From: Bacteroidota bacterium
Lineage (GTDB): Bacteria; Bacteroidota; Bacteroidia; UKL13-3
Assembly: GCA_040387195.1 (NCBI GenBank)
Contig: JAZKEF010000011.1
Span: 172,077-236,076 of the forward strand
Direction: 5' to 3'
DNA: 64,000 nt
Shown: positions 5,648 to 38,297 of the stretch, one piece after another
Numbering within the stretch: position 1 is the first letter of the stretch
Layout of the letters: each line of letters starts with the position of its first letter
Position numbers and translations under genes: made by a program
Notes under the pieces: model-generated
What the model saw: the letters and a program-made list of their open reading frames with translations, nothing else
Databases searched by the model: none
Told to the model about the DNA's origin: nothing

Positions 5648-6493
5648 ATGAAAAGGCAAATTTTATTCACCATTACCGCATGTATTTCTCTTTTAGGATT
5701 TGGGAAAGTAACTCCGGAGTTTTCTCCCAATCAGGATGTAGCATTATGCGGACCCACAGATGTATTCTTTGTATGTACCGCTCCATTAGATCCCGACAAT
5801 ATTTGGTGGGATTTTGGAGATGGAAACCTGGGTACAGGTCTTAATCCCACTCATCGCTATACTACCACCGGAGTATATTCCGTAAAAATGATTGTAGAAA
5901 AAGGGGGGATTAAAGACAGCGTAACCAAAATTGATTTTATTACCCTCAAACCAAAACCGGTATCGGCATTTAAGTCCGATATTATGGAAGTACCGGTAGC
6001 ATTCCAGCGTAAGTTTAAGTTTAACGGAGAAGCCAATGCCGATAGTGTGACTCAATACAATTGGATGGTTAACGGAACAGCTGTTGCCGGTAATGGCACC
6101 ATGACGCATACCTTTCCTGCCAATGGAGTTTATTTGGTTTCGCTAACAATTACCAACAGTGAAGGCTGTTCGGATGAACACGCTGATTCAGTAACCATTG
6201 ATGATGACGACCAGCCGACAGGAGTCCCCACCACCTCAGCTTCTGATAAGTTTTCAGTATCTGTTGTATTGAACCAGCCGTTGATTGTAATTAACCGTAA
6301 CGCTGCATTGCAAGAAGAGGCAACAATAAATGTCCTTGATATTACCGGGCGCGTAGTGGTTCGTACAAAAATGCATAAAGGGGAATCATCCATCCGGATG
6401 AAAACGGATGAACTATGGCCTGGAGCTTATATAGTGGAGCTTAGCAGTCAAACGTTCAAGGCTGCCAAGCGTTTTGATAAGATTATGTTGTAA
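5648..6493 (+). CDS. Secreted PKD-domain protein with a type A T9SS C-terminal sorting domain.
   Basis: Signal peptide. PKD signature WDFGDGNLGTGLNPTHRYTTTGVYSVKMIV and a second PKD-like repeat (NWMVNGT...VYLVSLTITNSEGCSDEH). C-terminus ...INVLDITGRVV...GAYIVELSSQTFKAAKRFDKIML is a Por_Secre_tail-like CTD. Confidence 0.8.
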   Translation: MKRQILFTITACISLLGFGKVTPEFSPNQDVALCGPTDVFFVCTAPLDPDNIWWDFGDGNLGTGLNPTHRYTTTGVYSVKMIVEKGGIKDSVTKIDFITLKPKPVSAFKSDIMEVPVAFQRKFKFNGEANADSVTQYNWMVNGTAVAGNGTMTHTFPANGVYLVSLTITNSEGCSDEHADSVTIDDDDQPTGVPTTSASDKFSVSVVLNQPLIVINRNAALQEEATINVLDITGRVVVRTKMHKGESSIRMKTDELWPGAYIVELSSQTFKAAKRFDKIML

Positions 6494-19535: not shown

Positions 19536-19686
19536 GGCTAGAGTCGTTTGCTTTTGTGTATTAGAAGTGCTTTTGGGTGAAAACCTTCGTAATGGAGTTA
19601 AATATTTTTTTAGATAACAGATGCTCAGTGCTTTAAAAGAGCGTGTGGCAACAAATCCCTCCGGGCTAAATGCTATCTTCGCGCCC

Positions 19687-21585
19687 ATGAATTATTTGTC
19701 GGTTGAAGGCCTTACTAAGAACTACGGAGAGAAAAACTTATTTAAAAATATAAACTTTGGATTAAGCAAAGGAGAGAAGGTAGCACTAATTGCCAATAAT
19801 GGTGTAGGTAAATCCACCTTACTCAAAATAATAGGAGGAAAAGATACGCCCGATTCAGGCAAAGTATCGTTGCGCAATGGCATCCGGGTTGGTTTTCTGG
19901 ATCAGGAACCTGATTTCGGCATGCACCTTACCATTAACGATTTGATTAATGGAGCCAATTCTAAATTATTATCTGCTATACGTGAATACGAAGATTCTCT
20001 GGAAGCTCAGGGTATTGACTATAACGATGAAACCCACCGCAGGTTTGAGTTGGCCAGCAATAAAATGGAAGAGTTGCAGGCATGGGATTATGAGCGCAGA
20101 CTCACAACCATTCTATCAAAGTTTAATATTACCGATTTAACCCAGCATATTGATTCGTTGAGCGGAGGACAAAAAAAGCGCCTTGCGCTTGCCTTGGTTT
20201 TACTGGATAATCCGGAGTTGATTATCCTGGATGAGCCAACCAATCATTTGGATCTGGATATGATTGAGTGGTTGGAAGAATACCTTACCCAAAGCACACT
20301 AACACTGCTGATGGTTACCCACGACAGGTATTTTCTGGATCGTGTTTGCAATAAAATATTGGAGTTAACGGATGGTAAACTGTTTCGCCATGAAGGGAAT
20401 TATTCCTATTTTCTGGAGAAACGTGATGAGCGTGAAGAGGTATATGATGTGGAGGTTGGCAAGGCCAAACAACTGATGAAAAAAGAGTTGGAGTGGATGC
20501 GCAGAATGCCCAAAGCACGTGGAACAAAATCGAAGGCCCGTATTGATTCGTTTTACGAGATACAGGATAAAGCCAATAGCCGCAGAAAAAAACAGGAACT
20601 CAAACTGGAGGTACGCATGAGCAGGATTGGTGGAAACATTCTCGACCTGAAAAAGGTGCGCAAGAGTTATGGCGACAAATTGATTTTGGATGGATTTGAG
20701 TATTCGTTTAAAAAGGGTGAACGTATTGGTATTATTGGTAAAAATGGAGTGGGTAAAACAAGCTTCCTCAATATTATTACCCAAATTGAACAACCCGATA
20801 GTGGGAAAATAAATGTGGGAGATACAATTGTGTATGGTTATTACTCGCAAAAAGGAATTGTATTAAAAGAAGATCAAAGGGTAATTGATGTGGTAAAAGA
20901 TATTGCCGATGTGATCATCCTTGGTGATGGAACGGCACTACCGGCATCACAATTTTTAACGCACTTTTTGTTTCCACCCGAAATGCAGTATACCTATGTT
21001 TCGAAGTTAAGTGGGGGTGAACGCAGGCGCTTGTATTTATTAACAGTGCTGATTAAAAATCCTAATTTTTTAATTTTGGATGAGCCTACCAATGACCTCG
21101 ATTTATTAACCCTGAATAAACTTGAAGATTTTCTGCAGGCCTTTGGTGGATGTTTACTGGTAGTGAGCCACGACAGGTATTTTATGGATAAGCTGGTTGA
21201 TCACTTGTTTGTGTTTGAGGGAGATGGAAAAGTACGTGATTACAATGGAACTTACAGCGAATACCGTGAGGAAGAAGATGAAAAGGAGATGCTTGCCGAA
21301 GCTGAACGCAAAGCGTTGTTACAAAAGAAAGTTGAACCGGTAAAACCGAAACCTGCTGTAGAGGCCAGACGTAAAATGACGTTTAAGGAAAAACAGGAAT
21401 TTGAAAACCTGGAAAAAGAAATAGCCGACCTGGAGGCTGAAAAGGCTGAATTGGAAAAAAGTTTATCAGATGTTTCATTAGGACATGAAGAGATTGTGAA
21501 ACTTGCAGGTCGCTTTGAAAAAGTGAAAGAGGGCATTGATGAAAAATCACTGAGATGGATTGAGTTGAGTGAGCTTGAAGGGTAG
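19687..21585 (+). CDS. ABC-F family ATPase (Uup/YbiT/EttA-like), with no membrane domain.
   Basis: Two ABC cassettes with Walker A GNNGVGKST/GKNGVGKTS and signatures LSGGQKKRLAL/LSGGERRRLYL. C-terminal K/E-rich coiled coil. Start placed at MNYLSVEGL; the track ORF begins 22 codons earlier. Confidence 0.85.
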   Translation: MNYLSVEGLTKNYGEKNLFKNINFGLSKGEKVALIANNGVGKSTLLKIIGGKDTPDSGKVSLRNGIRVGFLDQEPDFGMHLTINDLINGANSKLLSAIREYEDSLEAQGIDYNDETHRRFELASNKMEELQAWDYERRLTTILSKFNITDLTQHIDSLSGGQKKRLALALVLLDNPELIILDEPTNHLDLDMIEWLEEYLTQSTLTLLMVTHDRYFLDRVCNKILELTDGKLFRHEGNYSYFLEKRDEREEVYDVEVGKAKQLMKKELEWMRRMPKARGTKSKARIDSFYEIQDKANSRRKKQELKLEVRMSRIGGNILDLKKVRKSYGDKLILDGFEYSFKKGERIGIIGKNGVGKTSFLNIITQIEQPDSGKINVGDTIVYGYYSQKGIVLKEDQRVIDVVKDIADVIILGDGTALPASQFLTHFLFPPEMQYTYVSKLSGGERRRLYLLTVLIKNPNFLILDEPTNDLDLLTLNKLEDFLQAFGGCLLVVSHDRYFMDKLVDHLFVFEGDGKVRDYNGTYSEYREEEDEKEMLAEAERKALLQKKVEPVKPKPAVEARRKMTFKEKQEFENLEKEIADLEAEKAELEKSLSDVSLGHEEIVKLAGRFEKVKEGIDEKSLRWIELSELEG

Positions 21586-23880: not shown

Positions 23881-26800
23881 CTATTGTTCAAATTCAATCA
23901 CGAACTCTGTCCATTGATTGACTTCACTTGTAACCGATATCCGGCCACCCAATGTTTCCAGTTGGGTTTTAACCATAAATAAACCTAAACCTTTACCCTC
24001 TGCATGAAGGTGGAAGCGCTTATACAGGCCGAACAGATTTTCTCCATGTTTTTCAAGGTCAATACCTAAACCATTATCCCTGAATCTAAGCTTCAATCCT
24101 GTAGGAGTTGTTTCTGAACGTATTGATACTTTTAAACCGATTTCGGGTCTGCGGTATTTAATACTGTTGTATATAAGGTTGTAAAAAATGCTGTGGATAT
24201 AAGGTTTTATAGAGTGCATTTCGGCTGCAGCCGAAAAGTCAGATTCAATCAGTATATCCTGATGGGCGATCACATTTTCGATGCTGAGTGTGATATCACG
24301 TAGGATGGTTTTAAATGAAACCAGCTCTTTGTTTTCAAAAACCATGTTACGTACCTGCAGTATTTCATTCATATCCATAATTACCTCATCGAGTTTTTGG
24401 GCGGCCGTTAACAATGCATCCATCACTTCAGGTAAATCCTTGGCATCAATGTATTCGAGCTTTACCAGCTCGCACAAGCCAAGTATATTGGCAACAGGGG
24501 CTCTTAGGTTATGGGAAACGATATATGAAAATTGGTCAATGTTTTTATTGCGCTCAGTGAGATCTTGGGTTACTTTTTCGCGCTCCTGTTCCACCAGTTT
24601 TCGTTCGGTTATATTCTCGTACGATACCACAATCATTTCTTCCCCGCTTTTAAATTTCACCACGTTCATGGCATACCAATAAGATTCTTTCATTCCCTCA
24701 AGAGGGTATTCAAGGTAAAACAAGGGGATCACTCCACTTAAAACATCCTTCATTCCCTGCAACACGGTTGTGGCTATTTTATCACCGCTGTCGATTGCTT
24801 TTTTACAAACATCAAAGTAATTGGTGCCGGTTGCGGTGCGAGCCAGTGTTGTTTCGCCATGTTCCAATGCAAAATTATTCCACGCATGATTGGATTCAAT
24901 TATTTCACCGTTGTGGTTTAATACAGCAATGTGTGAACTTAATGAACGCAGAATTCCTTTGTTGAAAGCTTCACTGGCTGCAAGTTTAATTTCAGCTTTT
25001 TTGCGTTGGTCAATATCCTGAAAACTTCCAAGTAGTTTGATACACTTACCATCTTTAAATTCGGCCTCACCAATGGTTCGAACCCACCGTTCATTATTTT
25101 TGAGTGTAATAATAGGATACTCCTCATCCCATGATTGGCCTGTTTCGAGAGCTGCCGTAATTTTCTCCATCATTTTTACCCTGGAGTCCCCGGCTTTATA
25201 AAATTGCAGTCGCGATTCAAGAGTAGGTGTGTAGTTTGGCTCTGCTTCAAATATTTCCTTTGTGATATCGCTCCAATACATTGTTTCTTTAATAATATCC
25301 ACTTCCCATCCACCAATCCTGGCAAGCGAGTTGGCCTTAATAATAAGCTCTTCCAACCTTCTTCTTTGGGTAAGGTCAATGCCCACACCAATCAAATAAT
25401 CAATGTTGTTAAAACGAATACGATGACCGTTAAAATAGTAAGGAATCCTTTTTTTATCTTTGGTGAAAAAATGTGCTTCCACATCGGAATGTCCCTCTTC
25501 AAAAACCCGGTCAATTTTTTCTTGCAGGAGTTTCTGTTCATCGATATCAAAAAAATCAAGCGGTTTCATGTGCTGTACCTCTTCTGACGCGTAACCTGAA
25601 ACCGATTCAAAGTTCTTGTTCCACCTCAGGAATTCGCCATTACGGTTATACAAATAAAATACTCCGGGCAAGCTGTTGATAATGGATTCTGATAATGTTT
25701 TTTCGATAAGTATCCGCTGTTCTGCTTTTTTATGCAGGCTTATGTCCCGGTAAAATATGGTGATACCATCCAGTGAAGGATAAACCTTTACAGAGAACCA
25801 GGTATCGAGAGGAGCATAATAGTCTTCAAATTCAACCGGCTTATTCGTGTTCATCGCCTCGTGGTACTTATCCCAAAAGATGGTTTGTTTAAGCCCCGGG
25901 TGAACCTCCCAGATTATTTTCCCTACAGTAGCATCCCGTCCTTGCGGATGCTGCAATAATGCTACATCGTTTAAATAAGTGTAACGCCAATTACGGTCGA
26001 GCGAAACAACAGCATCGCTCACTCTTGCAAGGGTTGTGGTAATCTGGTGTTCGGCTGAAATAATTTGTTCGGCCTTTTCCTTTACCAGTTTGTCGAGAAT
26101 GGTAGGTTGTGTAGCCATAAACCAGCAAAACAATCCTGCAATGCAGGCAAAGACGAATCCTAAAAGGGAGAGGGGGGTTACACTCAGTAAGGTACTTTGC
26201 TTTTTAAGTTTTACATAAATGGTCCAATCTCCGTCAGGTATATGAACCGAAACTGTTTCATCCGGTGATAAATGGATTTCGTTAGGCAGGAAGAATTCCG
26301 GTTGGTTCGTGTTCGGATTTATCTTTGATACCTGATAAATAAAACGGCTCTTATTGGTTGAGTCTATTTCAATGGCTTTAAAAAGGGTTGAAATCCTTAC
26401 CACCACACAGGAAAATCCCCAGAACTTATGGTCGATAAATATAGGAAGTCGGCCTACTATACCAACCCCACCTTGCTTTAGGTTGATGGGGCCTGCAAAA
26501 AATAATTCTTCCTTTTCGATGGCTGTCAGAGCCTCTTTATTTCGGGTGGGATCAGCAAGGACATCATAACCAATCACCGCCTCATTTCCTTTCAATGGAT
26601 ATACATGGGTAATAACCCCTTTTTGATTAAGCTGAATAACGTCAATGTTTTTGTTACTGCTTAAAATTGTTTGGGCAATATTGTCGAAATCGGTTGGGAT
26701 GCCATATTTTCTAACAATAAAGGCCAGGGTTTGGGTTGCAGCCAGGTTATTGCTCAATACAACCTGGAGCCGGTCTTTAATGGAATGAAGTTCTTTAATG

Positions 26801-26940
26801 GTTTCCTTTTGTTCGGATTTACGGGTAATTAAGTAATCCTGAAACACCAGGTATTGAGTTAAACTAGCCACAATGATAAACACAGCAAAGCCAAACAGAA
26901 AAGGCCGTTTAATATGCAAGATGCTGGTAAAACGTTTCAT
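23881..26940 (-). CDS. Multi-sensor histidine kinase with a periplasmic CHASE-like domain, TM segment, about 4 PAS/PAC domains, HisKA and HATPase_c. No receiver domain.
   Basis: H-box FSYIVSHNLRAPVANILG, G-boxes DNGLGID...GKGLGL, and several PAS signatures. About 270 aa of periplasmic sequence lie between TM1 and TM2. Confidence 0.8.
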   Translation of the reverse strand: MKRFTSILHIKRPFLFGFAVFIIVASLTQYLVFQDYLITRKSEQKETIKELHSIKDRLQVVLSNNLAATQTLAFIVRKYGIPTDFDNIAQTILSSNKNIDVIQLNQKGVITHVYPLKGNEAVIGYDVLADPTRNKEALTAIEKEELFFAGPINLKQGGVGIVGRLPIFIDHKFWGFSCVVVRISTLFKAIEIDSTNKSRFIYQVSKINPNTNQPEFFLPNEIHLSPDETVSVHIPDGDWTIYVKLKKQSTLLSVTPLSLLGFVFACIAGLFCWFMATQPTILDKLVKEKAEQIISAEHQITTTLARVSDAVVSLDRNWRYTYLNDVALLQHPQGRDATVGKIIWEVHPGLKQTIFWDKYHEAMNTNKPVEFEDYYAPLDTWFSVKVYPSLDGITIFYRDISLHKKAEQRILIEKTLSESIINSLPGVFYLYNRNGEFLRWNKNFESVSGYASEEVQHMKPLDFFDIDEQKLLQEKIDRVFEEGHSDVEAHFFTKDKKRIPYYFNGHRIRFNNIDYLIGVGIDLTQRRRLEELIIKANSLARIGGWEVDIIKETMYWSDITKEIFEAEPNYTPTLESRLQFYKAGDSRVKMMEKITAALETGQSWDEEYPIITLKNNERWVRTIGEAEFKDGKCIKLLGSFQDIDQRKKAEIKLAASEAFNKGILRSLSSHIAVLNHNGEIIESNHAWNNFALEHGETTLARTATGTNYFDVCKKAIDSGDKIATTVLQGMKDVLSGVIPLFYLEYPLEGMKESYWYAMNVVKFKSGEEMIVVSYENITERKLVEQEREKVTQDLTERNKNIDQFSYIVSHNLRAPVANILGLCELVKLEYIDAKDLPEVMDALLTAAQKLDEVIMDMNEILQVRNMVFENKELVSFKTILRDITLSIENVIAHQDILIESDFSAAAEMHSIKPYIHSIFYNLIYNSIKYRRPEIGLKVSIRSETTPTGLKLRFRDNGLGIDLEKHGENLFGLYKRFHLHAEGKGLGLFMVKTQLETLGGRISVTSEVNQWTEFVIEFEQ

Positions 26941-27174: not shown

Positions 27175-28398
27175 ATGCAATCCGAACAGTACACCAAACC
27201 GGTTTACATTTTTTTTCTTATGCTACCTACTGGCATCAGCAGCGGATTTGTTACCGTTGTGTTGCCCTATTTACTTACCCAAAACAATTTTCCTGTTTCG
27301 GTAACCGCAGGGATTGTCGCCTTTGGTGTTTCGGCCAACCTGTGGCGATTTTTATGGGGCCCTATCGTTGATATATCACTCAACTTGAAAAAATGGTATT
27401 GGATTGGGTTGCTCACCAGCATCGTTTCATTGCTTGTACTTTGTTTTACTCCGTTCACAACGGAGGGTGCTTCATTGTTGTCGGTTATCGTTTTTATTTC
27501 ACAGGTGGCCGCCACATTTATTGTTTTGCCGGTGAATGGTTTTATGGCCAAGAGTATTGAGGAAACAAAAAAAGGGAAAGCATCAGGCTGGTATCAAGCC
27601 GGGAGCTTAGCCGGTACAGGTTTAGGAGGTGGTGTAGGTTTATGGTTGGCAACACAATTCAATGTGGGTATTGCCGGTGCAGTAATGTGTGCTATGTCTT
27701 TATTGTTTGCATGGGTCATTGTATTTGTTCAAAACATTCCACGCCATGTACAGGAAATTACAATCCTGGAGGAAGTAAAAGGAATAGGCAGGGATATTTT
27801 GGAGTTGATTAAAGTACCGGTTGCATTGTTTGTCATTATCCTGATCATGATGCCTATTGGAACCGGAGCAGCAGGGAATTTATGGTCGGCCATTGCCCTC
27901 GATTGGCACACAGGCGCTGATACTGTCATTCTTGTTACCGGTTTATTAAGTGGTGGTGTAAGTGCCATGGGTTGCCTTGCAGGCGGATTGATGGCCGACA
28001 GGTGGGGTGTATGGGTAGCTTATTTCGGAAGTGGTATAGCCTGTGCGTGTGTTGCGTTTACGATGGCTGTAATGCCAATGGTACCCGAAGTGTACGTTGG
28101 GGGAGTATTATGCTATGCATTTGTGATGGGAATGGCTTATGCGGCATTTACAGCTACAGTTCTTTTTGCTATCGGTAAACACAATGTTGCTACAAAGTTT
28201 TCACTGCTGGCTTCATTAGGTAATTTACCTGTAGTATACATGACAACGATTAACGGATGGGTACACGATCAATACAGCAGCAAGCTGATGCTGATTGGCG
28301 AGGCAGCAATAGGAGCGTTATGTGTATGCCTGCTCTGGCTTGTTCTGAAATGGTTGAAACACCAGAGGTTTATTCAGAGCGATAAAGTAAATACATGA
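27175..28398 (+). CDS. MFS transporter, AmpG (muropeptide permease)-like family.
   Basis: About 12 TM helices. ...ANLWRFLWGPIVD... matches the AmpG K/RFLWxPxxD motif. Start trimmed to M31 of the track ORF. Confidence 0.55.
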   Translation: MQSEQYTKPVYIFFLMLPTGISSGFVTVVLPYLLTQNNFPVSVTAGIVAFGVSANLWRFLWGPIVDISLNLKKWYWIGLLTSIVSLLVLCFTPFTTEGASLLSVIVFISQVAATFIVLPVNGFMAKSIEETKKGKASGWYQAGSLAGTGLGGGVGLWLATQFNVGIAGAVMCAMSLLFAWVIVFVQNIPRHVQEITILEEVKGIGRDILELIKVPVALFVIILIMMPIGTGAAGNLWSAIALDWHTGADTVILVTGLLSGGVSAMGCLAGGLMADRWGVWVAYFGSGIACACVAFTMAVMPMVPEVYVGGVLCYAFVMGMAYAAFTATVLFAIGKHNVATKFSLLASLGNLPVVYMTTINGWVHDQYSSKLMLIGEAAIGALCVCLLWLVLKWLKHQRFIQSDKVNT

Positions 28399-28670
28399 TG
28401 AACCTTTTTTCGTTACATATGTATTTTTAACATTCACTTGCAACTTAATTTATTAGTATAAAACCACTCAATATCCATGATGTTTAAAGCAGTTAAAATT
28501 AGCGCCATCATCCTCATTATTCTTGTTATCGCCTGATTGTGTTATCTAACAAAGCCATATAACAAGCCTAGGTGGCTGTCGCGGTTGATGAGAACCCAAT
28601 CCTGAAAAGAATAAATGCGTAAACGAATGAAGATATTGCACTATTGAATTGAAAACGATACCTTTACCAT

Positions 28671-29498
28671 ATGTTGAAAAGAACTATATATATCATTGTT
28701 GCCATTACCTTTGGTGTGGTATTGCTCGAATCCTTTATGCTTAAACGTCCGGATGGAACAGTTCCGGGCCATACCGGTTCTCCGGGAGATTCATTGAAAA
28801 ACTGTACGGTTTGCCATGGAGGATTGGCTACCCCAATTGATGGATGGATTACGTCCGATATTCCCGCTTCAGGATATGTACCGGGTGTTACATATACGAT
28901 TACGGCAACGAACACAGAAGCGGAAGGTACCCGGTTTGGTTTTCAGGTTTCACCGCAAAATATACAGGGTGATTTACTGGGAACCATTATAGTTTCGGAT
29001 ACGGTGAAAACTCAATTGGTAGGCAATGGAAAGTATATTACGTACACAAGCAACGGTGTTGATGGTGCCGGTTTTAATACCTGGGTGTTCAAGTGGAAAG
29101 CACCTGTTGGCGGAACCGGAAAAGTAGTGTTCTACGGAGCATTTAATTCCAACTTTAACGGACATAAAGATGGCGATAAAACATTCCTCTCCACATTAAC
29201 GGTGAATGAAGCGGGTACAACCGGTTTACAATCGTTCTCTTCCGATGATACACCTTTTGTATTGTACCCACAACCTGCATCCGAAAGGGTGTTTGTTAAT
29301 ATCGGCACAACCTATTCAGGTAAACCATCCATCCGTTTAATGGACATCAATGGCAAAACGGTATCTGAACTTGTAGCGGATGAAACAGCCAACGGAATAC
29401 TGAGCTTATCGCTTACAGATATTCCGCGGGGAATCTATTTTATGGAGTTGCAGATAGACGGAAAACAGGAAGCTGTGAGAAAGTTGATGGTGAATTAA
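28671..29498 (+). CDS. T9SS type A cargo protein with a single N-terminal CxxCH haem-binding motif and a beta-sandwich body.
   Basis: N-terminal anchor/signal. GHTGSPGDSLKNCTVCHGG. CTD ...LYPQPASERVFVNIGTTYSGKPSIRLMDINGKTV...GIYFMELQIDGKQEAVRKLMVN. Confidence 0.65.
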   Translation: MLKRTIYIIVAITFGVVLLESFMLKRPDGTVPGHTGSPGDSLKNCTVCHGGLATPIDGWITSDIPASGYVPGVTYTITATNTEAEGTRFGFQVSPQNIQGDLLGTIIVSDTVKTQLVGNGKYITYTSNGVDGAGFNTWVFKWKAPVGGTGKVVFYGAFNSNFNGHKDGDKTFLSTLTVNEAGTTGLQSFSSDDTPFVLYPQPASERVFVNIGTTYSGKPSIRLMDINGKTVSELVADETANGILSLSLTDIPRGIYFMELQIDGKQEAVRKLMVN

Positions 29499-29536
29499 CA
29501 CAACCGTATAACATTCAAATCCTAAATCTCACATTC

Positions 29537-29553
29537 TTTATAACTTCTTTATA
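29537..29553 (+). promoter_or_regulatory. Candidate KdpE operator upstream of the kdpD-like kinase. Hexamer direct repeats have 11-bp periodicity: TTTATA-ACTTC-TTTATA.
   Basis: E. coli KdpE binds TTTATA-N5-TTTACA direct repeats. An almost identical box recurs at 31351-31367, in front of kup. Confidence 0.45.
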
Positions 29554-29591
29554 CCCGAATCTTTACCTTCGTTTAGCAGATACATACACCA

Positions 29592-30671
29592 TTGAAACTG
29601 TTGAACACACGCAAATATCCCTTGGCACTGCAGTATGGCATTGGCATAGGTTTGGTGTTGTTTGTAGCAACGGCCTGCTTTTACACAGCTGATTATATCG
29701 GGTACCGGATTGTTGCACTCATATTGCTTATGACCGTTTCGTTAGTGGCAATGTTGTTTGAGATCTTACCGGTATTACTTACTGCAGTGCTGAGTGCGGT
29801 TACCTGGAATTTCTTTTTTATTCCACCCATTTTTACATTCCATATTTCCAATGCCGAGGATGTATTGATGTTTTTACTTTACTTTTCGATTGCTTTGGTG
29901 AATGCGGTATTAACATTTAAGATCCGCAAAGAGGAAAGCAGGGCAAGGGATCAGGAAGAAAAGGAAAACACCATCCGGCTTTACAATACCCTGTTGAATT
30001 CATTGTCGCATGAATTGCGTACACCCATATCAACCATACTGGGAGCTGTAGATACCCTGAAAGAAAACAATGTCCGCTTAACTGCCGTTCAGCAATCGGA
30101 ATTGCTCACCGAAATAGATACGGCAAGTATCCGGCTCAACAGGCAGGTTGAAAACCTCTTGAACATGAGCAGGCTGGAAAGTGGTATGTTAAAACCTAAG
30201 TTTGATTGGTGTGATCTGAATGAATTGATTCACTCGGTGGTGCAAAAAATGGATACCGGAAAATATCATTCAATTGTGTTTGATCCAGCAGAAACATTGC
30301 CGTTAATTAAAACGGATGAAGGCTTGGCAGAACAGATTTTACATAATTTATTGCACAACGCCATTCAATATACCCCCCATCATTCTATTATTACCATCGC
30401 GGCCGTACACCACAATGAAACATTTGTGTTAACGGTTTCGGACAATGGAATGGGTTTTCCCCAAACAGAAATGGCTGCGGCTTTTGATAAGTTTTACCGG
30501 TTACCCAATAGCAAAACGGGTGGTAGCGGATTGGGTTTATCCATTGTGAAGGGTTTTGTTGAAGCCTTAAATGGAACAGTTCGCTTGCAAAACAATCAGA
30601 GTGGTGGAGCCTGTTTTACGGTTGAAATTCCGGTTGAAGCATCATACATTCATAACCTCAAAAATGAATAA
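29592..30671 (+). CDS. kdpD: Sensor histidine kinase KdpD, C-terminal module only (DUF4118 4-TM domain, HisKA, HATPase). It lacks the KdpD N-terminal sensor and Usp domains.
   Basis: WNFFFIPP (E. coli FNFFFTEP) in TM3. H-box LSHELRTPIS. C-terminus ...SGGACFTVEIP (E. coli GGACFRVTLP). TTG start at 29592. Confidence 0.8.
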   Translation: MKLLNTRKYPLALQYGIGIGLVLFVATACFYTADYIGYRIVALILLMTVSLVAMLFEILPVLLTAVLSAVTWNFFFIPPIFTFHISNAEDVLMFLLYFSIALVNAVLTFKIRKEESRARDQEEKENTIRLYNTLLNSLSHELRTPISTILGAVDTLKENNVRLTAVQQSELLTEIDTASIRLNRQVENLLNMSRLESGMLKPKFDWCDLNELIHSVVQKMDTGKYHSIVFDPAETLPLIKTDEGLAEQILHNLLHNAIQYTPHHSIITIAAVHHNETFVLTVSDNGMGFPQTEMAAAFDKFYRLPNSKTGGSGLGLSIVKGFVEALNGTVRLQNNQSGGACFTVEIPVEASYIHNLKNE

Positions 30672-31341
30672 GGCCGAAATATTAATTATTGATGACGAGC
30701 CGCAAATCAGAAAGTTGCTCGAAATAACGCTGGAAAGCCATGATTATAAAGTGTGGCAATCCGAAAGCGGAAAGGAAGGCATCGTTATGGCTGCCAATCA
30801 TCCTCCGGAATTGATTTTGCTCGACATTGGCTTACCCGATAAAAGTGGACATGAGGTACTGAAAGAACTGCGTACCTGGTACAACAAATCCATTATCATC
30901 TTATCTGTGCTCAATAATGAGTCTGATATTGTAACGGCACTGGATAGTGGTGCCACCGATTATCTTACCAAACCTTTCAGATCGGCTGAATTGCTGGCAC
31001 GCATCCGTGCAGCCATCCGCAGGAACCAAACACCCAACAATGGCACAAGCATTGTATGCGGTGAATTGCTGATTGAGTTAACAGCACGTATAGTTAAAAA
31101 GAATAATGAAGTGATTAAACTCACCAATACAGAATTTAACCTGATTTCCCTCTTTGCGCAAAACGAAGGCAGGGTATTGACGCATCAGTTTATCCTTCGC
31201 GAAATATGGGGTGTAGGAGCACAAACTGAAACGCAATATTTACGTGTTTTCGTGGGAACCCTTCGGAAAAAAATTGAAGATGATTCCAATCATCCCAAAC
31301 ATATCATTACCGAAAGTGGGGTAGGGTACCGCTTTACCTGA
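30664..31341 (+). CDS. kdpE: OmpR-family response regulator KdpE.
   Basis: Colinear with E. coli KdpE (LRTWYNKSIIILSVLNNESDIVTALDSGATDYLTKPF versus [37 protein letters not shown]). Winged-helix C-terminus. ATGAATAA overlap with the kdpD stop. Confidence 0.85.
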   Translation: MNKAEILIIDDEPQIRKLLEITLESHDYKVWQSESGKEGIVMAANHPPELILLDIGLPDKSGHEVLKELRTWYNKSIIILSVLNNESDIVTALDSGATDYLTKPFRSAELLARIRAAIRRNQTPNNGTSIVCGELLIELTARIVKKNNEVIKLTNTEFNLISLFAQNEGRVLTHQFILREIWGVGAQTETQYLRVFVGTLRKKIEDDSNHPKHIITESGVGYRFT

Positions 31342-31350
31342 TATCCCATT

Positions 31351-31367
31351 TTTATAATTTCTTTATA
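31351..31367 (+). promoter_or_regulatory. Second candidate KdpE operator, TTTATA-ATTTC-TTTATA. It lies 10 nt after the kdpE stop and about 70 nt upstream of the kup ATG.
   Basis: Same hexamer, spacer and hexamer architecture as 29537-29553. Followed by CAAACCCCG, reminiscent of the CACCCCG that follows the E. coli site. Confidence 0.45.
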
Positions 31368-31436
31368 CAAACCCCGTATAGTTTTATAACCTGCCAATAA
31401 CATCTGTTGCAACTTTGTATCATCAAAAAAGGATGC

Positions 31437-33413
31437 ATGGAAACCAATCACACAGGTGTTAAAAACAAAGTAACAGCGGCATCACTCTTAATTGCACTTG
31501 GAATAATATATGGTGATATCGGAACCAGTCCTCTTTATGTACTGAAGGCAATCATTGGTGACAGGCCCATAAGCGCAATGCTTGTGTATGGTGGCATTTC
31601 CTGTATTTTTTGGACTATTACCTTTCAAACCACTTTCAAATACATTTACCTTACACTTAAAGCTGATAACAATGGCGAAGGAGGTATCTTTTCATTGTAT
31701 GCTCTGGTAAGAAGGTACGGTAAATACCTTGTGATTCCTACTATTCTCGGTGCATCAGCATTATTGGCCGATGGTATCATCACACCTCCGATCTCGGTTT
31801 CTTCGGCAGTTGAAGGCTTAACCAATATCAAAGGGTTGGAACATATTCCTACCATACCTATTGTGATTGCTATTTTATCGGGACTGTTTTTTTTTCAACG
31901 GTTTGGAACCCATAAAGTGGGAACAGTTTTTGGCCCAGCCATGTTGTTGTGGTTTGCCATGCTGGCTATATTGGGCAGCATTCAAATTGTGCAACATCCC
32001 GATATCTTAAAAGCACTCAATCCAACTTATGCCTATCATTTTTTATCAGAATATCCTGGAGGGTTTGTATTACTGGGAGCAGTTTTTTTAGCAACAACCG
32101 GTGCTGAAGCATTATACTCCGATCTGGGTCACTGTGGCCGGAAAAATATCCGCATTACCTGGGGATTGGTGAAAACCTGTTTGTTGCTGAACTACATGGG
32201 GCAGGCAGCCTGGCTTATGAATATGGGGGCAGATCATTTACCTGCCGGACATAATCCGTTTTTTGACATCATGCCGCAATGGTTTTTAATTCCGGGAATT
32301 GCCATTGCCACCTTTGCTGCCATCATTGCTTCGCAGGCATTGATCAGCGGGAGTTACACGCTCATCAACGAAGCCATGAACATGAATTTTTGGCCGCGTG
32401 TTGCAGTTAGACAACCTTCGGAAACCAAAGGACAGATTTATATTCCAAGTGTAAATATCATTCTTTGGATAGGATGTGTACTGATGGTATTGCATTTTGA
32501 AAATTCGTCAAACATGGAAGCGGCTTATGGATTAGCCATTACGCTTACCATGATGGTAACAACATACCTGCTGTTTTATTTTCTGCTGTTTAAACTCAAG
32601 TGGAACAAAGCACTGGTGTACATATTGCTGTTGCTATTTGCCAGCATAGAGGTGTCGTTTTTTATCGCCAACATTCAAAAATTTCCCGAAGGCGGTTACA
32701 TCACCATTGTTATTGCCGGCATCTTCATCTTTATCATGTATTCGGTATACTCCGGACGTAAAATCAGCAACCGTTTTACCAAATTTGTTGATCTCGGACA
32801 ATATGTAAACAGTATTAAGGAATTGAGTGGGGACGATGCAATCGGGAAATTCTCCACACACCTGGTTTACCTTACCAAAGCCAATAACCGCCATGAGATA
32901 GAGGAGAAAATAATCAAATCCATTTTGGCGAAAACCCCCAAACGTGCAGATGTTTATTGGTTTGTTCATATCCACCGTACCAATGAACCTTACACACTTT
33001 CTTATGATGTGTCGGAACTGGTGGAAGATAAAATCATCAAGGTAAATGTGAACGTGGGATTCAGGGTACAGCCGAGAACAGAATTATACTTCAAAAAAAT
33101 TGTGCATGAGTTGATGGTTAACCAGGAGTTGAACCTGCATGTTCGTCCAGATGGTTCTACCAAATACAATAATGAACCCGACTTTAAATTTGTGGTCATC
33201 GAAAAATTCCTATCTGTAGAAAACGAATTTACCTTAAGGGAAGGGATTTTATTGAACACATTCTTTTGGTTGAAACAAGTGAGTTTAAGTGATGAAAAAG
33301 CGTTTGGGCTTGATAAATGTGATGTAGTGATTGAACATGTTCCACTTGTTTACCAGCCTGTAACATATATTGAACTTAAACGCGAAAATCCTGTTTCTAT
33401 CCGTAATGAATAA
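31437..33413 (+). CDS. kup: Kup/HAK/KT family potassium uptake transporter.
   Basis: IYGDIGTSPLYV signature, about 12 TM helices and a C-terminal cytoplasmic domain. The ATG at 31437 is preferred over the track TTG at 31407. Confidence 0.9.
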   Translation: METNHTGVKNKVTAASLLIALGIIYGDIGTSPLYVLKAIIGDRPISAMLVYGGISCIFWTITFQTTFKYIYLTLKADNNGEGGIFSLYALVRRYGKYLVIPTILGASALLADGIITPPISVSSAVEGLTNIKGLEHIPTIPIVIAILSGLFFFQRFGTHKVGTVFGPAMLLWFAMLAILGSIQIVQHPDILKALNPTYAYHFLSEYPGGFVLLGAVFLATTGAEALYSDLGHCGRKNIRITWGLVKTCLLLNYMGQAAWLMNMGADHLPAGHNPFFDIMPQWFLIPGIAIATFAAIIASQALISGSYTLINEAMNMNFWPRVAVRQPSETKGQIYIPSVNIILWIGCVLMVLHFENSSNMEAAYGLAITLTMMVTTYLLFYFLLFKLKWNKALVYILLLLFASIEVSFFIANIQKFPEGGYITIVIAGIFIFIMYSVYSGRKISNRFTKFVDLGQYVNSIKELSGDDAIGKFSTHLVYLTKANNRHEIEEKIIKSILAKTPKRADVYWFVHIHRTNEPYTLSYDVSELVEDKIIKVNVNVGFRVQPRTELYFKKIVHELMVNQELNLHVRPDGSTKYNNEPDFKFVVIEKFLSVENEFTLREGILLNTFFWLKQVSLSDEKAFGLDKCDVVIEHVPLVYQPVTYIELKRENPVSIRNE

Positions 33414-33524
33414 TGGGATTACCCTATATTTAGATAAAGGCTTTTTTAGGAAGGTAGTCCATTCCTGTATACAAAAAATAACAATTGAGGAGGGAAATAA
33501 TTACCTTCTATTAACAAAAAATAT

Positions 33525-34916
33525 ATGAAACAACTTGTAACAATTGCTTTGGCATTGATAGTGTATGGTGCATCGGCCCAAACTGAATGGCCCTCGGAAA
33601 ACAAACCGAAAGACAGCGTGACCAGTTCGCATGAACCGTTTGGGGGTATTGATATGACCTGGCATAACGGGGGTGACCGTAGGGAGAAAAATATCTGGAC
33701 CATATCTCCCTATTTTACACCCAGTATTTTAGTTGATGTAAATTACACCTACTCATTTCACAATCCAAATGACAATACGGTTGTTGGATCAACAGCACTT
33801 TCCCGCAACAACGAAGTCCAACTTTCGGCATTACATGTTGGAGGCGACTTTCAGTATGAGGGAGCGAGGGCAAGATTTATGACACAGTTTGGAACACGCT
33901 CCATAGTTGTACCACGCAATGATTACAGTGTTTACCGCGGGCAATATCAATTGGCAGATGCTTACCGTTACTTAAGTGAAGCGTATGCGGGATATCATAT
34001 CAATAAGTGGTATGGCATCAATATCGATGCAGGCTTGTTTATGTCTTATATCGGATTGAACTCCTTTTACCAGGCCGAAAACTGGGAATACCAGGCATCC
34101 TTTACTTCCGATAATACTCCCTGGTTTTTCAACGGATTACGCGTTCAACTTTATCCATCCAAATACCTGAAAATAGAACCCTGGATTATCAATGGTTGGC
34201 AGAGTTATGGCAAATTTAACAGCATGCCGGGTTTTGGTGGTAACATCACCTGGGTGCCCAACAGCAACCTGAAACTGCTCACCAATAACTATTATGGATC
34301 AGATGCTGCCGGTATTCCAAATCGCAAAAGATTTCATTCCGACAATAGTTTACTTGTAAGGTATTATAACAATCCCGAAGCATCAGGAATAACCAAAATG
34401 GCTTGCTCCCTAACCGGAGATATAGGTTTCGAAAAGGGGGGAGGAGTGAATGGATTTAGTGATGGAGGAAGCTCAAAAGGCCCTGCACAATATTTTGCAA
34501 GTGCTATGTTTTATAACAGAATCTGGTTTGCCAAAAATAAATTTGCATGGACTGTTGGTGGAGGTATGATGACCAATCCCGGTCGTTACCTGGTATTGTA
34601 TCCAACAGGACAGGCAAGTCCCTTACCCAATCCGCTGAATCCAACACAAACAGCTGGAACATTTCCTTTCAGTGCAAATCCGGGCGACCCGTTTGATGCA
34701 TGGGATTGTTCCACCAATATTGATTTTATGCCTAACCAAAGCATTACTTTCAGGCTTGAATGTGTTTACCGCAATGCATCCGTTCCTTATTTTGCAGGGC
34801 CCAATGGGGTAACATCTCAAACAGGTTATACAACCTCTACACTGGATCCCGCCTGGCGCCCCGATTTGGTCAAATCAGAAACAAGGGTGTTACTGGCAAT
34901 GTTGTTCCGCATGTAA
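33525..34916 (+). CDS. Outer-membrane beta-barrel, putative porin.
   Basis: Signal peptide MKQLVTIALALIVYGASAQ. Alternating aromatic/Gly-rich amphipathic strands throughout. 463 aa. Confidence 0.55.
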   Translation: MKQLVTIALALIVYGASAQTEWPSENKPKDSVTSSHEPFGGIDMTWHNGGDRREKNIWTISPYFTPSILVDVNYTYSFHNPNDNTVVGSTALSRNNEVQLSALHVGGDFQYEGARARFMTQFGTRSIVVPRNDYSVYRGQYQLADAYRYLSEAYAGYHINKWYGINIDAGLFMSYIGLNSFYQAENWEYQASFTSDNTPWFFNGLRVQLYPSKYLKIEPWIINGWQSYGKFNSMPGFGGNITWVPNSNLKLLTNNYYGSDAAGIPNRKRFHSDNSLLVRYYNNPEASGITKMACSLTGDIGFEKGGGVNGFSDGGSSKGPAQYFASAMFYNRIWFAKNKFAWTVGGGMMTNPGRYLVLYPTGQASPLPNPLNPTQTAGTFPFSANPGDPFDAWDCSTNIDFMPNQSITFRLECVYRNASVPYFAGPNGVTSQTGYTTSTLDPAWRPDLVKSETRVLLAMLFRM

Positions 34917-35012
34917 ATTGAAAAAACGAAAATGAAAGTATGCAATAAATGAATCAGTTAGATTTCTCTCCTCCCAATTTGCAATTCTTAAATCACACAT
35001 CTCAAATGGTAT

Positions 35013-36074
35013 TTACTGTTCTTCCTTATAGTAAATCTTATAAAACTTACGTCCGTCTGAATCTTCGCCACGCTCTATGAGTTCAGTGTTTCCGTGGATG
35101 TAGATGTGGAAATTTTTATCGAGTTTTAGTACGCTTTTAAATACGCGGGCCTGTTTTTTTACTGCATTGGTGGAGATATCAAAATTGCCACTCAGCGACA
35201 TATCGGCATCGTGGATCATCTCATCCTTAAACTTGTTGAAGGAGTCAATTACTTTATCATCACCAAAAATAGATTGGGTAAAATCTTTTTCGTTGAAGCG
35301 TTCGTTTTCTTTAAAATAGTCTACCGATTTGTTGAGTAGATCAATTTGATCGGCTTTGTTTACTTCAAACTCCTTATCGAGCTGGGAGGTTACAAATGCT
35401 TTGGTTACGGTAAGGAAATTATTGGTAAAATGGTAACTGTCGGCACAGGCTGTTACTTTGAGGAAATCATCTTTCCAAAACTGTGCATCGGCACCGCGAC
35501 TGGTTTTATCAACGGTACACACCTTAAAGCCACTTTCCTTATTCAGGTTAAATACCAGGCAACCTTTATCGAGCGTATCTATGTTTATTCCTCTTTCAAA
35601 ACCAACCTTATAGTGTTTGCCTTTACGTTCACTTACAATAAACGGGTCTTTTTGCTCCGACTTAAAAATACCTATGGCATCGGCAATTACACCATCTACC
35701 AAACAATGTTCGATATAGGCTACATACAAATCGCCCGATTTAATATTGGGGTGTTGGGTAGCCTCAAATAAATGTTTTGCAATGTTGATGCTGTTAATGT
35801 GAAAGGCTGTAGGGTGTTCGAAAATCTCATTCACGAACTGAAATACCGGATTTAGTTCAGCATTATCGGTACTCGAGGTAAACTCATAAAATACAGGTGC
35901 ACTGAAAGGTTTCAGAAAATAATGATTAAGGGCCTCAATCAAATCCTCATCCTCAATGGCCAAAGGTTCAGTTGTGGCATATAATTGTTCGCCATTATTT
36001 TTATTGCCTACTTCGTGAACGGATACGTGGCTGATGCTGCTGGTTGAAAAATCAATACTCATGTTGGCCGGCAA
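35013..36074 (-). CDS. Nucleoid-associated protein, NdpA/YejK-like (PF04245). Tentative.
   Basis: 353 aa cytoplasmic protein. N-terminal SISHVSVHEVGNK echoes the YejK IALHQL start. Size and charge distribution fit. Assignment is from memory of the family, not a computed alignment. Confidence 0.4.
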   Translation of the reverse strand: MPANMSIDFSTSSISHVSVHEVGNKNNGEQLYATTEPLAIEDEDLIEALNHYFLKPFSAPVFYEFTSSTDNAELNPVFQFVNEIFEHPTAFHINSINIAKHLFEATQHPNIKSGDLYVAYIEHCLVDGVIADAIGIFKSEQKDPFIVSERKGKHYKVGFERGINIDTLDKGCLVFNLNKESGFKVCTVDKTSRGADAQFWKDDFLKVTACADSYHFTNNFLTVTKAFVTSQLDKEFEVNKADQIDLLNKSVDYFKENERFNEKDFTQSIFGDDKVIDSFNKFKDEMIHDADMSLSGNFDISTNAVKKQARVFKSVLKLDKNFHIYIHGNTELIERGEDSDGRKFYKIYYKEEQ

Positions 36075-36229: not shown

Positions 36230-38080
36230 CTATTGTTTAATGATTTTTTGAGTGGATACAACGGTTCCGTTTAACTGAATCGTTGCGAAATAAATACCGG
36301 CTTTGAGTGTCGCCATATCAAGAGAAAGTGTGTTCATTCCCGTTGAGATGTTTGCAGGCAAGTTAACCAATTGTTTTCCTGTAATATCATACAAACCCAC
36401 CAATGCTGTTCCCGATACCTTGCTGTTGAGCATAACCGATGCTTCTGATTGAACAGGATTCGGGAATAATTGAGGTATGGAATTCAATAAACTGTTTTCG
36501 GCAACTCCGGTTGAAGTAGTAGTATCTTCAGTCGCGCTCGAAATACGGTAGTAACGCATCAATTGTCCACGGATTTCACCATTTGCAAAAGAGGTGGTAT
36601 GGATGTTTACATACGTACTGTCATTTCTGCGCATGGCAATTGAAATGCCATTATTGAAAGGAGAGTACTTGTAACTGCCATTGTTGGTAAACGGATCTAA
36701 ATCCAACGCAACACCGCCCGATTCACCTTTTTTACCGTAGTGAATATGTCCGGCAGTTACTGTTCCCTGCAAACCATCAAAGGCAAGCATGGTGTGTAAA
36801 TTGGTGCGGTCTCTGTCAAATGTTGCAATTGCTGTTCCTTGTGCACCACTGTTGGTTGTGGCTTGTGCGCCATTCAGTTCGGCAATAAAACCTTCACGTG
36901 CCAAACGGAATACTTGTCCGCGGATTTCTCCTCCCGGATTGCTATCGGTATGCACTACAAAGTATAAACTGCCTTTTAATAATTCACTGATCAATACAGG
37001 TGTCAACGGACTCACGGCATCGTTTTTTGTCCACATGCCCGTAAGCATATTATTGTTGGGAGTCAATTCCTTTACCACACCACCGCTTTGGTTTGGCTCT
37101 CCATTGTGGAAGTGAGCAGCCGCAGCATTACTTGTTAATCCGGTATACAACACATTGTAACGTAATGTATCCATTGTATTGTTTAACCACAACGTAGATA
37201 CACCATATCCTGTTGAAGGTTTAGCCAATGTTCCACCACCCGCAACAATAGCGGCTGGATTTAACCATGCATCAAAACGTAAGGTTTTGGTTGAGCGCAA
37301 TTGTCCACGAATTTCACCACCGGCAACTGTTGTAGTGTGTAAGTTTAAATAAATACTATCCGACATTAACGCTACCATCAAATCAGGCCAGTTGCTAACG
37401 CTCACACCACCCACCATTGACATACTGTCGGCTTGAATAGTTGGTTCCAGCCCAAGCGCTACACCACCGTTTGCACCCGGTTTACCAAAGTGTAAATGCG
37501 CGGCAGTAAGTTTTCCGGTCATTCCTCTGGCAACTACACGAACGGTTGCTGTATCACCTTTCATTCCAAAATTAATGGCTGCATGTCCGACACCCGGTGA
37601 GCCCGAAGCTGCCTGTGTTCCATCCAGACTGGCTGCATAACCCCAGTCGGTTTCCAGTTTTACAAATCCTAAAATCTCTACCGCAGGATTCATGGTAGTA
37701 TGAACGGCTACATATAAGTTGCCTTCCATAAAATCAGTCATCAATCCTGTTAATTGCGTTCCGGTGATGAACGAACGAACGGTGTTTCCCAATACTTTAC
37801 CGTCAAAATCAATAATCACGTTACCACCGGTACGTTGGTTGTGAATATGGTAACCGGTAAGCGGGCTGCTCATTTTGGCAACGCTGATGGTGAAATACAT
37901 GGTATCGCGTGGTGAGTTCAGCATAAAGGCTGCCACACCATTTCCGGTGGTTGTTAATCCTGCCGGTGGTTGTAATCGGGCAGAGAAAGTAAGTCTGTCG
38001 GCCAAATGGTCGGCTTTGGTGAGTGTAGCTCCTGCAAGTAAGGCAGCTCCCAATACTAAAGATCGTAATGTTGTTTTCAT
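36230..38080 (-). CDS. Secreted protein with four CHRD domains and a type A T9SS C-terminal sorting domain.
   Basis: Four repeats of the CHRD signature (GYHIHNQRTGGNVIIDF, AAHLHFGKPGANGGVALGLEP, AAAHFHNGEPNQSGGVVKEL, AGHIHYGKKGESGGVALDLDP), each followed by ...GxLYxNxHTxxxxxGEIRGQ. CTD ...LFPNPVQSEASVML...GIYFATIQLNGTVVSTQKIIKQ. Start trimmed to MKTTLRSLVLGAALLAGA. Confidence 0.8.
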   Translation of the reverse strand: MKTTLRSLVLGAALLAGATLTKADHLADRLTFSARLQPPAGLTTTGNGVAAFMLNSPRDTMYFTISVAKMSSPLTGYHIHNQRTGGNVIIDFDGKVLGNTVRSFITGTQLTGLMTDFMEGNLYVAVHTTMNPAVEILGFVKLETDWGYAASLDGTQAASGSPGVGHAAINFGMKGDTATVRVVARGMTGKLTAAHLHFGKPGANGGVALGLEPTIQADSMSMVGGVSVSNWPDLMVALMSDSIYLNLHTTTVAGGEIRGQLRSTKTLRFDAWLNPAAIVAGGGTLAKPSTGYGVSTLWLNNTMDTLRYNVLYTGLTSNAAAAHFHNGEPNQSGGVVKELTPNNNMLTGMWTKNDAVSPLTPVLISELLKGSLYFVVHTDSNPGGEIRGQVFRLAREGFIAELNGAQATTNSGAQGTAIATFDRDRTNLHTMLAFDGLQGTVTAGHIHYGKKGESGGVALDLDPFTNNGSYKYSPFNNGISIAMRRNDSTYVNIHTTSFANGEIRGQLMRYYRISSATEDTTTSTGVAENSLLNSIPQLFPNPVQSEASVMLNSKVSGTALVGLYDITGKQLVNLPANISTGMNTLSLDMATLKAGIYFATIQLNGTVVSTQKIIKQ

Positions 38081-38297
38081 GAGTGTTGATATTAATTCGA
38101 AGTCATATACGGAAGAAGGGAGGGTGATGGATTTAGTGGATGCAAAAAAAATCAATACAGGATTCCTGAAACCGGAATGCAGATTCATATTTTTTTATCT
38201 GCACTTGAAAAAATCCTAATACCTTTGAATCCTAATCAAGCATCCACGATTGTGCTTTGAACAGTTGGTATTAAGTATTGTGGATCGAGCATCGAGT

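Follow-up and report, generated by a model that had tools for sequence, protein, structure and literature searches.

The window studied here, a stretch of 64 kb (64,000 nucleotides) of contig JAZKEF010000011.1 from a Bacteroidota bacterium of the UKL13-3 lineage (GenBank assembly GCA_040387195.1), carries four consecutive plus-strand genes which encode a short sensor histidine kinase of the KdpD lineage, a KdpE-like response regulator, the K+ transporter Kup and an outer-membrane porin of the BBP2 type (Table 1). An initial annotation of the window had described the kinase as the C-terminal module of KdpD, accompanied neither by its N-terminal part nor by the pump operon kdpFABC, and had left two alternatives: either the missing half is encoded elsewhere, as in a split KdpD, or the protein is a minimal KdpD which senses via its membrane core.

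Table 1. Features of the kinase–regulator–kup–porin region, in positions of the 64-kb window.
Feature	Position	Strand	Basis
Predicted KdpE-type box TTTATAacttcTTTATA, upstream of the kinase gene	29537..29553	+	exact TTTATA-N5-TTTATA
-7-like promoter element TACCTTCG, 10 nt past the kinase box	29564..29571	+	pattern search
Minimal KdpD-lineage histidine kinase, 359 aa	29592..30671	+	Pfam and alignment to E. coli KdpD
KdpE-like OmpR-family response regulator, 225 aa	30664..31341	+	Pfam Response_reg and Trans_reg_C
Predicted KdpE-type box 1 TTTATAatttcTTTATA, upstream of kup	31351..31367	+	exact TTTATA-N5-TTTATA
Putative weaker second box TTTATAacctgCCAATA, promoter-proximal, 32 nt past the start of box 1	31383..31399	+	
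-7-like promoter element CAACTTTG of kup	31410..31417	+	pattern search
kup, K+ uptake transporter, 658 aa from ATG	31437..33413	+	Pfam K_trans and K_trans_C
BBP2 (OmpL-like) outer-membrane porin	33525..34916	+	PF07642, 145.8 bits (gathering score 26.2)

Architecture of the kinase and its partner genes

Pfam assigns to the kinase a DUF4118 domain (PF13493, residues 16–120, nt 29637–29951, 73 bits), a HisKA domain (133–198) and a HATPase_c domain (242–349), with the phospho-acceptor His140 encoded by nt 30009–30011. Nothing else of substance was detected in the open reading frame (ORF), which is devoid of recognizable KdpD (PF02702, a Walker A/B serine kinase), Usp and GAF_3 domains. The same scan applied to the KdpD of E. 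coli returned KdpD (21–230), DUF4118 (403–508), GAF_3 (527–644), HisKA (664–730) and HATPase_c (776–882). The DUF4118 domain of the window kinase aligns with E. coli residues 403–508; the protein indeed opens, as initially described, at the segment of four transmembrane helices (TM1–TM4). The lack of the roughly 400 residues harbouring the KdpD N-terminal and Usp domains is likewise borne out, by the Pfam scan and by a tblastn search of the window with residues 1–395 of E. coli KdpD, which yielded only noise.

The break point, which the initial annotation had proposed to locate by alignment to full-length KdpD, was determined with MAFFT from the window kinase, E. coli KdpD, a KdpD of 903 residues and three relatives of about 500 residues. 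The membrane domain and the TM4 extension align without gaps to full-length KdpD. Beside the absent N-terminal ca. 400 residues of E. coli KdpD there is one deletion, which corresponds to residues ~516–661, i.e. to the GAF domain, and behind which the alignment picks up precisely where the DHp helix begins. The description as a C-terminal module therefore holds with respect to the N-terminal part, whereas the loss of the GAF domain had escaped notice; by this alignment, the kinase is smaller than the C-terminal half of KdpD, since the GAF domain is gone as well. Retained are His140 (H673 in E. coli KdpD), Pro79 (P466), the E-x-x-T phosphatase motif, the N (N252/N256), G1 (D284/G286/G288) and G2 (G311/G315) boxes, and a charged extension of TM4 of about 20 residues between the membrane domain and DHp. 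The conserved helix motif, initially given as FNFFF(T/I)xP, actually reads WNFFFIPP and corresponds to FDLFFIAP in E. coli. Sequence identity to E. coli KdpD amounts to 34% over the core. The highest-scoring NCBIfam model is KdpD (NF007793) with 168.6 bits at a cut-off of 1123, and the best match in the PDB is 6lgq.

A model calculated with AlphaFold2 from 35 family members (mean predicted local distance difference test score 85.4) contains four membrane helices and a single unbroken helix comprising residues 88–158, which runs from TM4 through to the histidine-bearing DHp. Family conservation combined with this model places a group of nearly invariant residues, Y38, F76, P79 and D90, at the ends of TM2, TM3 and TM4. 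According to alignment and model, the sensor part has almost no extramembrane loops. To judge from its domains and motifs, the kinase is complete, consisting of the DUF4118 bundle, the TM4 extension and a DHp/CA core equipped with every catalytic motif.

The reading frame cannot be extended in the 5' direction because position 29592 is the earliest possible start codon past an in-frame stop; NCBI places the start at 29601, which gives 356 residues. The preceding gene (28671–29498, plus strand) is intact and encodes an unrelated choice-of-anchor V protein with a C-terminal tail of the type IX secretion system (T9SS), so that the initial statement that no N-terminal half is encoded just upstream in another frame was correct. 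The 93-nt spacer in front of the kinase gene holds a regulator box and a promoter-like element.

The regulator gene overlaps the stop codon of the kinase gene by 8 nt. Its product shares 41% identity with E. coli KdpE across 220 residues (E = 1e-60), and its residues D54, R194, R201 and T216 are equivalent to D52, R193, R200 and T215 of E. coli KdpE. In the latter, R193, R200 and T215 are needed for DNA binding and D52 is the phospho-acceptor, R193 being characteristic of KdpE and distinguishing it from PhoB and OmpR (Narayanan et al., PMC3264566). With the phospho-acceptor aspartate and all three DNA-contact residues preserved, the regulator is, as far as its sequence tells, a KdpE orthologue.

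The two genes that follow the kinase–regulator operon had been correctly named kup and porin. Kup matches PF02705 (K_trans) with 515 bits and PF22776 (K_trans_C) with 58.6 bits. Its start is likely the ATG at 31437 (METNHTG...); the TTG at 31407 in the ORF list lies inside the predicted promoter. The porin, which was identified by PF07642, has a signal-peptide-like N-terminus (MKQLVTIALALIVYGASAQ), and its gene begins 111 nt past kup in the same orientation, the gene behind it being encoded on the opposite strand.

The absence of kdpFABC from the window, as initially annotated, was substantiated by six-frame tblastn searches with E. coli KdpA, KdpB, KdpC, KdpF and KdpD 1–395, all hits of which were noise (E ≥ 0.4), and by Pfam scans of the large ORFs across the 64 kb, which revealed no Kdp component. 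As a positive control, the same KdpA, KdpB, KdpC and KdpD N-terminal queries detected Kdp genes elsewhere at 34–67% identity.

KdpE-type boxes and promoters

The binding site of E. coli KdpE is TTTATA-N5-TTTACA (PMC3264566), and we confirmed it upstream of kdpF in strain MG1655 (locus L001; related loci are numbered accordingly). Box TTTATAacttcTTTATA, which ends 39 nt ahead of the start codon of the kinase gene, matches the KdpE site of E. coli kdpFABC in half-sites and spacing; the two TTTATA half-sites of the canonical boxes recur with a period of 11 bp. The exact form TTTATA-N5-TTTATA occurs exactly twice in the 64 kb, both strands included, in front of the kinase gene and in front of kup, while 0.01 matches are expected and none of 100 shuffled sequences reached two. 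In the window as in E. coli, the sites conform to TTTATA-N5-TTTA(T/C)A and lie on the coding strand upstream of the target gene. Canonical kdpFABC-kdpDE loci (L089, L090, L094) also carry the box upstream of kdpA, which argues that the motif is the KdpE family's own. The predicted site before the kinase gene suggests autoregulation.

In related loci the box recurs at the same places. Of 53 related metagenome loci, 33 have a box no farther than 200 nt ahead of the kinase gene. A coding-strand box likewise occupies the corresponding place before kup in L004, L005, L006, L010, L013, L014 and many metagenome loci. Over 68 metagenome loci, 63 of the 86 plus-strand boxes fall into two 200-nt promoter windows (0.86 expected; Poisson P ~1e-92); the effect is very large, albeit with an overstated P value, as coding DNA, the AT content of which is lower than that of spacers, forms part of the background. 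Most kup promoters, when aligned by eye, display a TTTAYA-like half-site 21–22 nt past the second half-site of box 1, and from this comparison we infer TTTATAacctgCCAATA to be a second kup box.

Promoters of Bacteroidota are characterized by the -7 consensus TAnnTTTG. Related loci have TACCTTTG at the matching distance from the kinase box, and they keep cAACTTTG, cACCTTTG or cAATTTTG at the -7 position of kup; the position of the box relative to the -7 element is conserved among them. In E. coli the box is situated upstream of -35, whereas the window has it 10 nt from -7 before the kinase gene and as a tandem before kup. This arrangement resembles class II activation in the PhoR/PhoB system, where tandem direct-repeat pho boxes ca. 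10 bp upstream of -10 replace the -35 element. Likewise, the tandem boxes of the window are positioned about 10 bp before -7 in the place of the -33 element, although signal and specificity differ and activation is presumed here. A scan of 28300–35200 with sigma-70 and terminator consensus patterns produced no more sites than shuffled sequences, such a consensus being unsuited to Bacteroidota promoters. An Rfam scan of 28400–35200 gave no match at E ≤ 1 and hence no c-di-AMP or other riboswitch before kup.

Family, recurrence and transporter partners

The best 120 homologues of the kinase all have 338–390 residues and the same three domains; they originate from metagenome-assembled genomes (MAGs) of Bacteroidota (Saprospiraceae, Bacteroidia and others) and are often automatically named KdpD. 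Searching 1.84 billion cluster representatives retrieved 5029 clusters at E ≤ 1e-30. The nearest of them contain proteins of ~360 residues, followed by TM/GAF-like/DHpCA kinases of ~500–530 residues and full-length KdpDs of ~880–900 residues (38–50% identity). Among 133 representative clusters, 50 possess neither the N-terminal part nor the GAF domain. An unbootstrapped neighbour-joining tree calculated from the columns shared by these 133 clusters places the window kinase in a large clade, composed solely of forms devoid of both parts and comprising most of the 50, which is nested among full-length KdpDs; a few further short forms are scattered elsewhere. By length, domain content and abundance, the ~360-residue kinase represents a conserved family with thousands of homologues and not a fragment.

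The gene order kinase–regulator–kup recurs in Ohtaekwangia (L004), a Flavobacteriales MAG (L006), L010, L013 (a contig of 2.8 Mb) and a Saprospiraceae MAG (L014). The flanks of this cassette are unrelated between loci, and a BBP2 porin gene is present in most of them: it follows kup in L006, L013, L014, L024, L025, L030, L035 and L054 and precedes it in L010. Locus L005 has kinase, regulator and kup without porin; in L032 the porin is the sole partner, and KdpE boxes stand directly before its gene. A metagenome scan with the family alignment recovered 62 short-kinase loci, 34 of which were evaluable with at least 1 kb on both sides, and in 20 of these 34 kup adjoins the kinase/regulator pair (18 downstream, 2 divergent). 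Kinases 53% identical to that of the window occur in L007 and L008, with kup in neither locus. On the basis of these comparisons, the short pair together with its boxes is a cassette which recurs across Bacteroidota orders.

Other partners are transporters as well. TrkH was found in L022, L034, L038 and L040. Five loci (L036:6260-9726, L039:4518-7970, L059:6328-9733, L065:6342-9724, L077:6344-9728) share the order KdpE box, Amt-family gene (PF00909, 460 residues, mutual identity 76–100%), short kinase and KdpE-like regulator, which suggests either cross-talk between K+ and NH4+ or an Amt-family member used for K+. In L070 (4595–8833) the partner is an APC-family permease of 672 residues with two boxes ahead, and in L064 (6658–9714) it is an NhaA Na+/H+ antiporter, whose gene is oriented divergently and separated from the pair by a spacer that contains a box.

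Some related loci display further peculiarities. The regulator–kup spacer of L006 (11750–12411) measures ~660 nt, against ~100 nt in other loci, and appears to contain an additional small ORF; its KdpE box is still found just before kup (12324), and the box of its kinase gene is directly preceded by a tRNA-like sequence. In L007 (Saprospiraceae), an exact KdpE box at 8379–8395 precedes by ~500 nt an ORF for a T9SS-tailed protein of 1282 residues, which may be a target or a chance match.

The window itself contains a second sensor kinase gene at 23881–26940 (minus strand), 2.6 kb upstream of the kinase gene. It encodes an orphan protein of 1019 residues with CHASE, several PAS, a weak HisKA and a HATPase_c domain, and no response regulator gene was seen beside it. 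The window is also rich in type IX secretion cargo: a DUF7948/CHU_C protein of 1443 residues (221–4552, minus), a PKD protein (5648–6493, plus), a di-haem cytochrome c peroxidase with Por_Secre_tail (18132–19688, minus), the choice-of-anchor V protein preceding the kinase gene and a four-repeat CHRD protein (36230–38188, minus).

Proposed function, alternatives and implications

Based on the gene content, the boxes and their recurrence, we consider it likely that the locus constitutes a self-contained four-gene K+-uptake cassette composed of a minimal KdpD-lineage kinase, a KdpE orthologue, Kup and a BBP2 porin. Upon K+ shortage, the kinase would phosphorylate the regulator, which would then bind to the boxes abutting or replacing the -33 region, as PhoB does with pho boxes, and activate its own operon and kup, probably also the porin gene. 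The porin could then let K+ across the outer membrane, and Kup could take it across the inner one. The kinase might perceive K+ or a closely related ionic cue via the periplasmic face of the bundle (Y38, P79 and D90) and the TM4 extension, from where the signal would reach His140 along a single continuous helix. This scheme of sensing is plausible because E. coli KdpD truncations without the N-terminal region keep the response to K+ limitation, although they lose the shut-off at high K+; moreover, how the kinase activity of E. coli KdpD is balanced against its phosphatase activity depends on an arginine cluster after TM4 (PMC2714519). A simple rationale can also be offered for the missing N-terminal domain. 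In KdpD this domain is a serine kinase that phosphorylates Ser162 of KdpB, while the proposed K+-sensing sites are found in the TM/GAF part (PMC11018627). The N-terminal domain thus serves the Kdp pump and not transcription, and would be dispensable when the output is Kup.

Several points weigh against this reading. The stimulus, activation as opposed to repression, and binding of the regulator to the boxes are all deduced from sequence. The GAF domain, one of two regions proposed for K+ sensing in E. coli, is absent according to both scan and alignment; any sensing of intracellular K+ by this kinase would have to follow another mechanism. The regulator has KdpE as its top NCBIfam model with 219 bits, under the equivalog cut-off of 325, and Kup scores 414.7 bits with TIGR00794, under the cut-off of 539.6. 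Neither a box nor a clear promoter was detected in the 111-nt gap separating the porin gene from kup, with which it may be co-transcribed. The association of short-kinase relatives with Amt-family and NhaA genes implies that the cue may be broader than K+. Finally, the overstated P value of the box enrichment and the unbootstrapped tree, both mentioned above, belong on this side.

As to the two alternatives left by the initial annotation, a minimal KdpD sensing via its membrane core is the better supported one because of the existence of a short family, the self-contained cassette and the KdpE boxes before the kinase operon and kup, whereas a split KdpD gained no support from anything found. 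A split KdpD would mean that the window kinase supplies its C-terminal half, that a KdpD-N/Usp chain and kdpFABC are encoded elsewhere, that the pair controls the Kdp pump in the normal manner and that kup is an incidental or extra neighbour. Such split forms, consisting of a KdpD/Usp chain and a TM/GAF/DHpCA chain, do exist, Bacteroidota are reported mostly to have the version with KdpD/Usp only, and stand-alone KdpD/Usp proteins are common in the phylum (Silberberg et al. 2024, PMC11018627). In addition, the box is the same as that recognized by E. coli KdpE, the search of the source genome for Kdp genes covered the 64-kb window, and three of the 62 short-kinase loci (L021, L031 and L050) have a Kdp gene within 8 kb, which may even adjoin the cassette. 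However, the published kinase chain contains the GAF domain lacking in the window kinase, neither Kdp nor KdpD-N genes were detected in the window, and the remaining 59 of the 62 loci have no Kdp gene within 8 kb. The three exceptions themselves speak for separate control. In L021 (11866–17035) and L031 (1–5854), a sigma-54 regulator of the NtrC type is inserted between the short-kinase cassette and kdpA/B, and no KdpE box was found before kdpA. In L050 (2–2463), a stand-alone KdpD-N/Usp gene overlaps by 4 nt the gene of a HAMP-PAS kinase of 580 residues, and short kinase, KdpE and kup come next as a separate unit. Judged by this organization, the neighbouring kdp loci use their own regulator (L021, L031) or their own kinase plus KdpD-N/Usp (L050). 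Since the boxes of the window, furthermore, stand before kup and the kinase gene itself, the split-KdpD explanation is disfavoured by the 64 kb and the related loci covered, and we regard it as quite improbable.

A different objection concedes a genuine two-component system in control of kup, the cue of which would be not K+ but NH4+, Na+, pH, ionic strength, membrane tension or the activity of the partner transporter. The scarcity of extramembrane loops, the missing GAF domain and the linkage of close relatives to Amt-family, NhaA, TrkH and APC transporters are compatible with such a cue, and the stimulus even of E. coli KdpD has been a matter of long debate, with K+, ionic strength and ATP under discussion (PMC2714519). 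Yet the commonest partners are K+ importers, with TrkH in addition to the 20 Kup cases among 34 loci, and the nearest relatives of other architecture are bona fide KdpDs in kdpFABC operons. As the TM3–loop–TM4 motif and the charged TM4 extension implicated in K+ signalling of E. coli are also kept, a cue other than K+ appears unlikely. Finally, the much shorter length of 359 compared to the canonical 894 residues might by itself, and as the sole indication, suggest that a full-length kdpD has decayed to a truncated pseudogene or been cut short in the assembly. This explanation was rejected and has a negligible probability: the ORF is intact with all catalytic motifs, an identical protein is present in an assembly from an independent read set, homologues of the same length number in the thousands, promoter and box upstream are conserved, and the upstream neighbour is an unrelated intact gene.

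Compared with the E. coli system, the favoured minimal kinase/KdpE pair shares the DUF4118 bundle, the TM3 motif, the equivalent of P466, the charged TM4 extension and the HisKA/HATPase_c core with the histidine, N, G1 and G2 elements, as well as the regulator and its box. It differs in the size of the kinase (359 versus 894 residues, without the KdpD N-terminal, Usp and GAF domains), in the predicted outputs, which are kup and the porin gene instead of kdpFABC, and in the gene order, the regulatory genes coming first. Measured against canonical KdpD, the protein falls outside by its domains (KdpD, Usp and GAF) and by the lack of kdpFABC linkage in the 64 kb; its score stays under the equivalog cut-off, with KdpD nevertheless the best model. 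Nor does it correspond to the published split form, since that form retains the GAF domain. With the latter it has in common a membrane-anchored kinase without N-terminal KdpD/Usp which is paired with KdpE; the split form, however, belongs to species with an annotated Kdp pump (PMC11018627), whereas the window kinase is linked to Kup and has no KdpD/Usp gene within 64 kb.

The closest relatives with another architecture are DUF4118/GAF-like kinases of ~510 residues from Bacteroidales (Tangfeifania diversioriginum, Mariniphaga), the catalytic core of which is about 50% identical. They, too, lack an N-terminal domain and are accompanied by an overlapping gene for a KdpE-like regulator and by a KdpE box upstream of a K+ transporter other than Kdp. 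They differ by an insert of ~150 residues at the GAF position and by TrkH being encoded upstream of the kinase, as seen in L015 (8395–12197, Tangfeifania diversioriginum) and L017 (8257–12218) with the order KdpE box, TrkH, ~510-residue kinase and KdpE-like regulator. Just downstream, L015 also contains a gene for a 702-residue APC permease with PTS_EIIA_2 and TrkA_C domains.

A search of open-access full texts, which leave out most subscription journals, turned up no account of kup, TrkH or Amt being under the control of a short DUF4118 kinase/KdpE pair. A preprint on Caulobacter KdpE, based on chromatin immunoprecipitation sequencing, names kdp as the principal target and reports that no mechanism regulating kup is known, and an excerpt of PMC5458449 refers to E. 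coli kup as constitutively expressed.

Beyond the locus, we tentatively propose, as a possibility that falls somewhat short of even chances, that the DUF4118 four-helix bundle and the TM4 extension form a complete autonomous sensor of K+ or, more generally, of monovalent cations, that the N-terminal, Usp and GAF domains are add-ons tied to the pump, and that Bacteroidota re-use the minimal pair with an unchanged box as a switch for cation importers other than Kdp. The automatic labels "KdpD" and "ATP-binding protein" hide the usual lack of linkage of these kinases to a Kdp pump. The site of K+ sensing in KdpD is a matter of debate, the membrane domain, the TM4 extension, the GAF domain and the N-terminal domain having all been implicated, and a widespread natural kinase reduced to bundle, TM4 extension and core offers a ready minimal construct for locating it. 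For the physiology of the organisms, the KdpE box before kup implies that Kup would be inducible in many Bacteroidota, and the BBP2 porin encoded alongside suggests that the acquisition of K+ has an outer-membrane step of its own. If sensor autonomy and the rewiring of the pair hold true, Kup would be part of an inducible system spanning both membranes.

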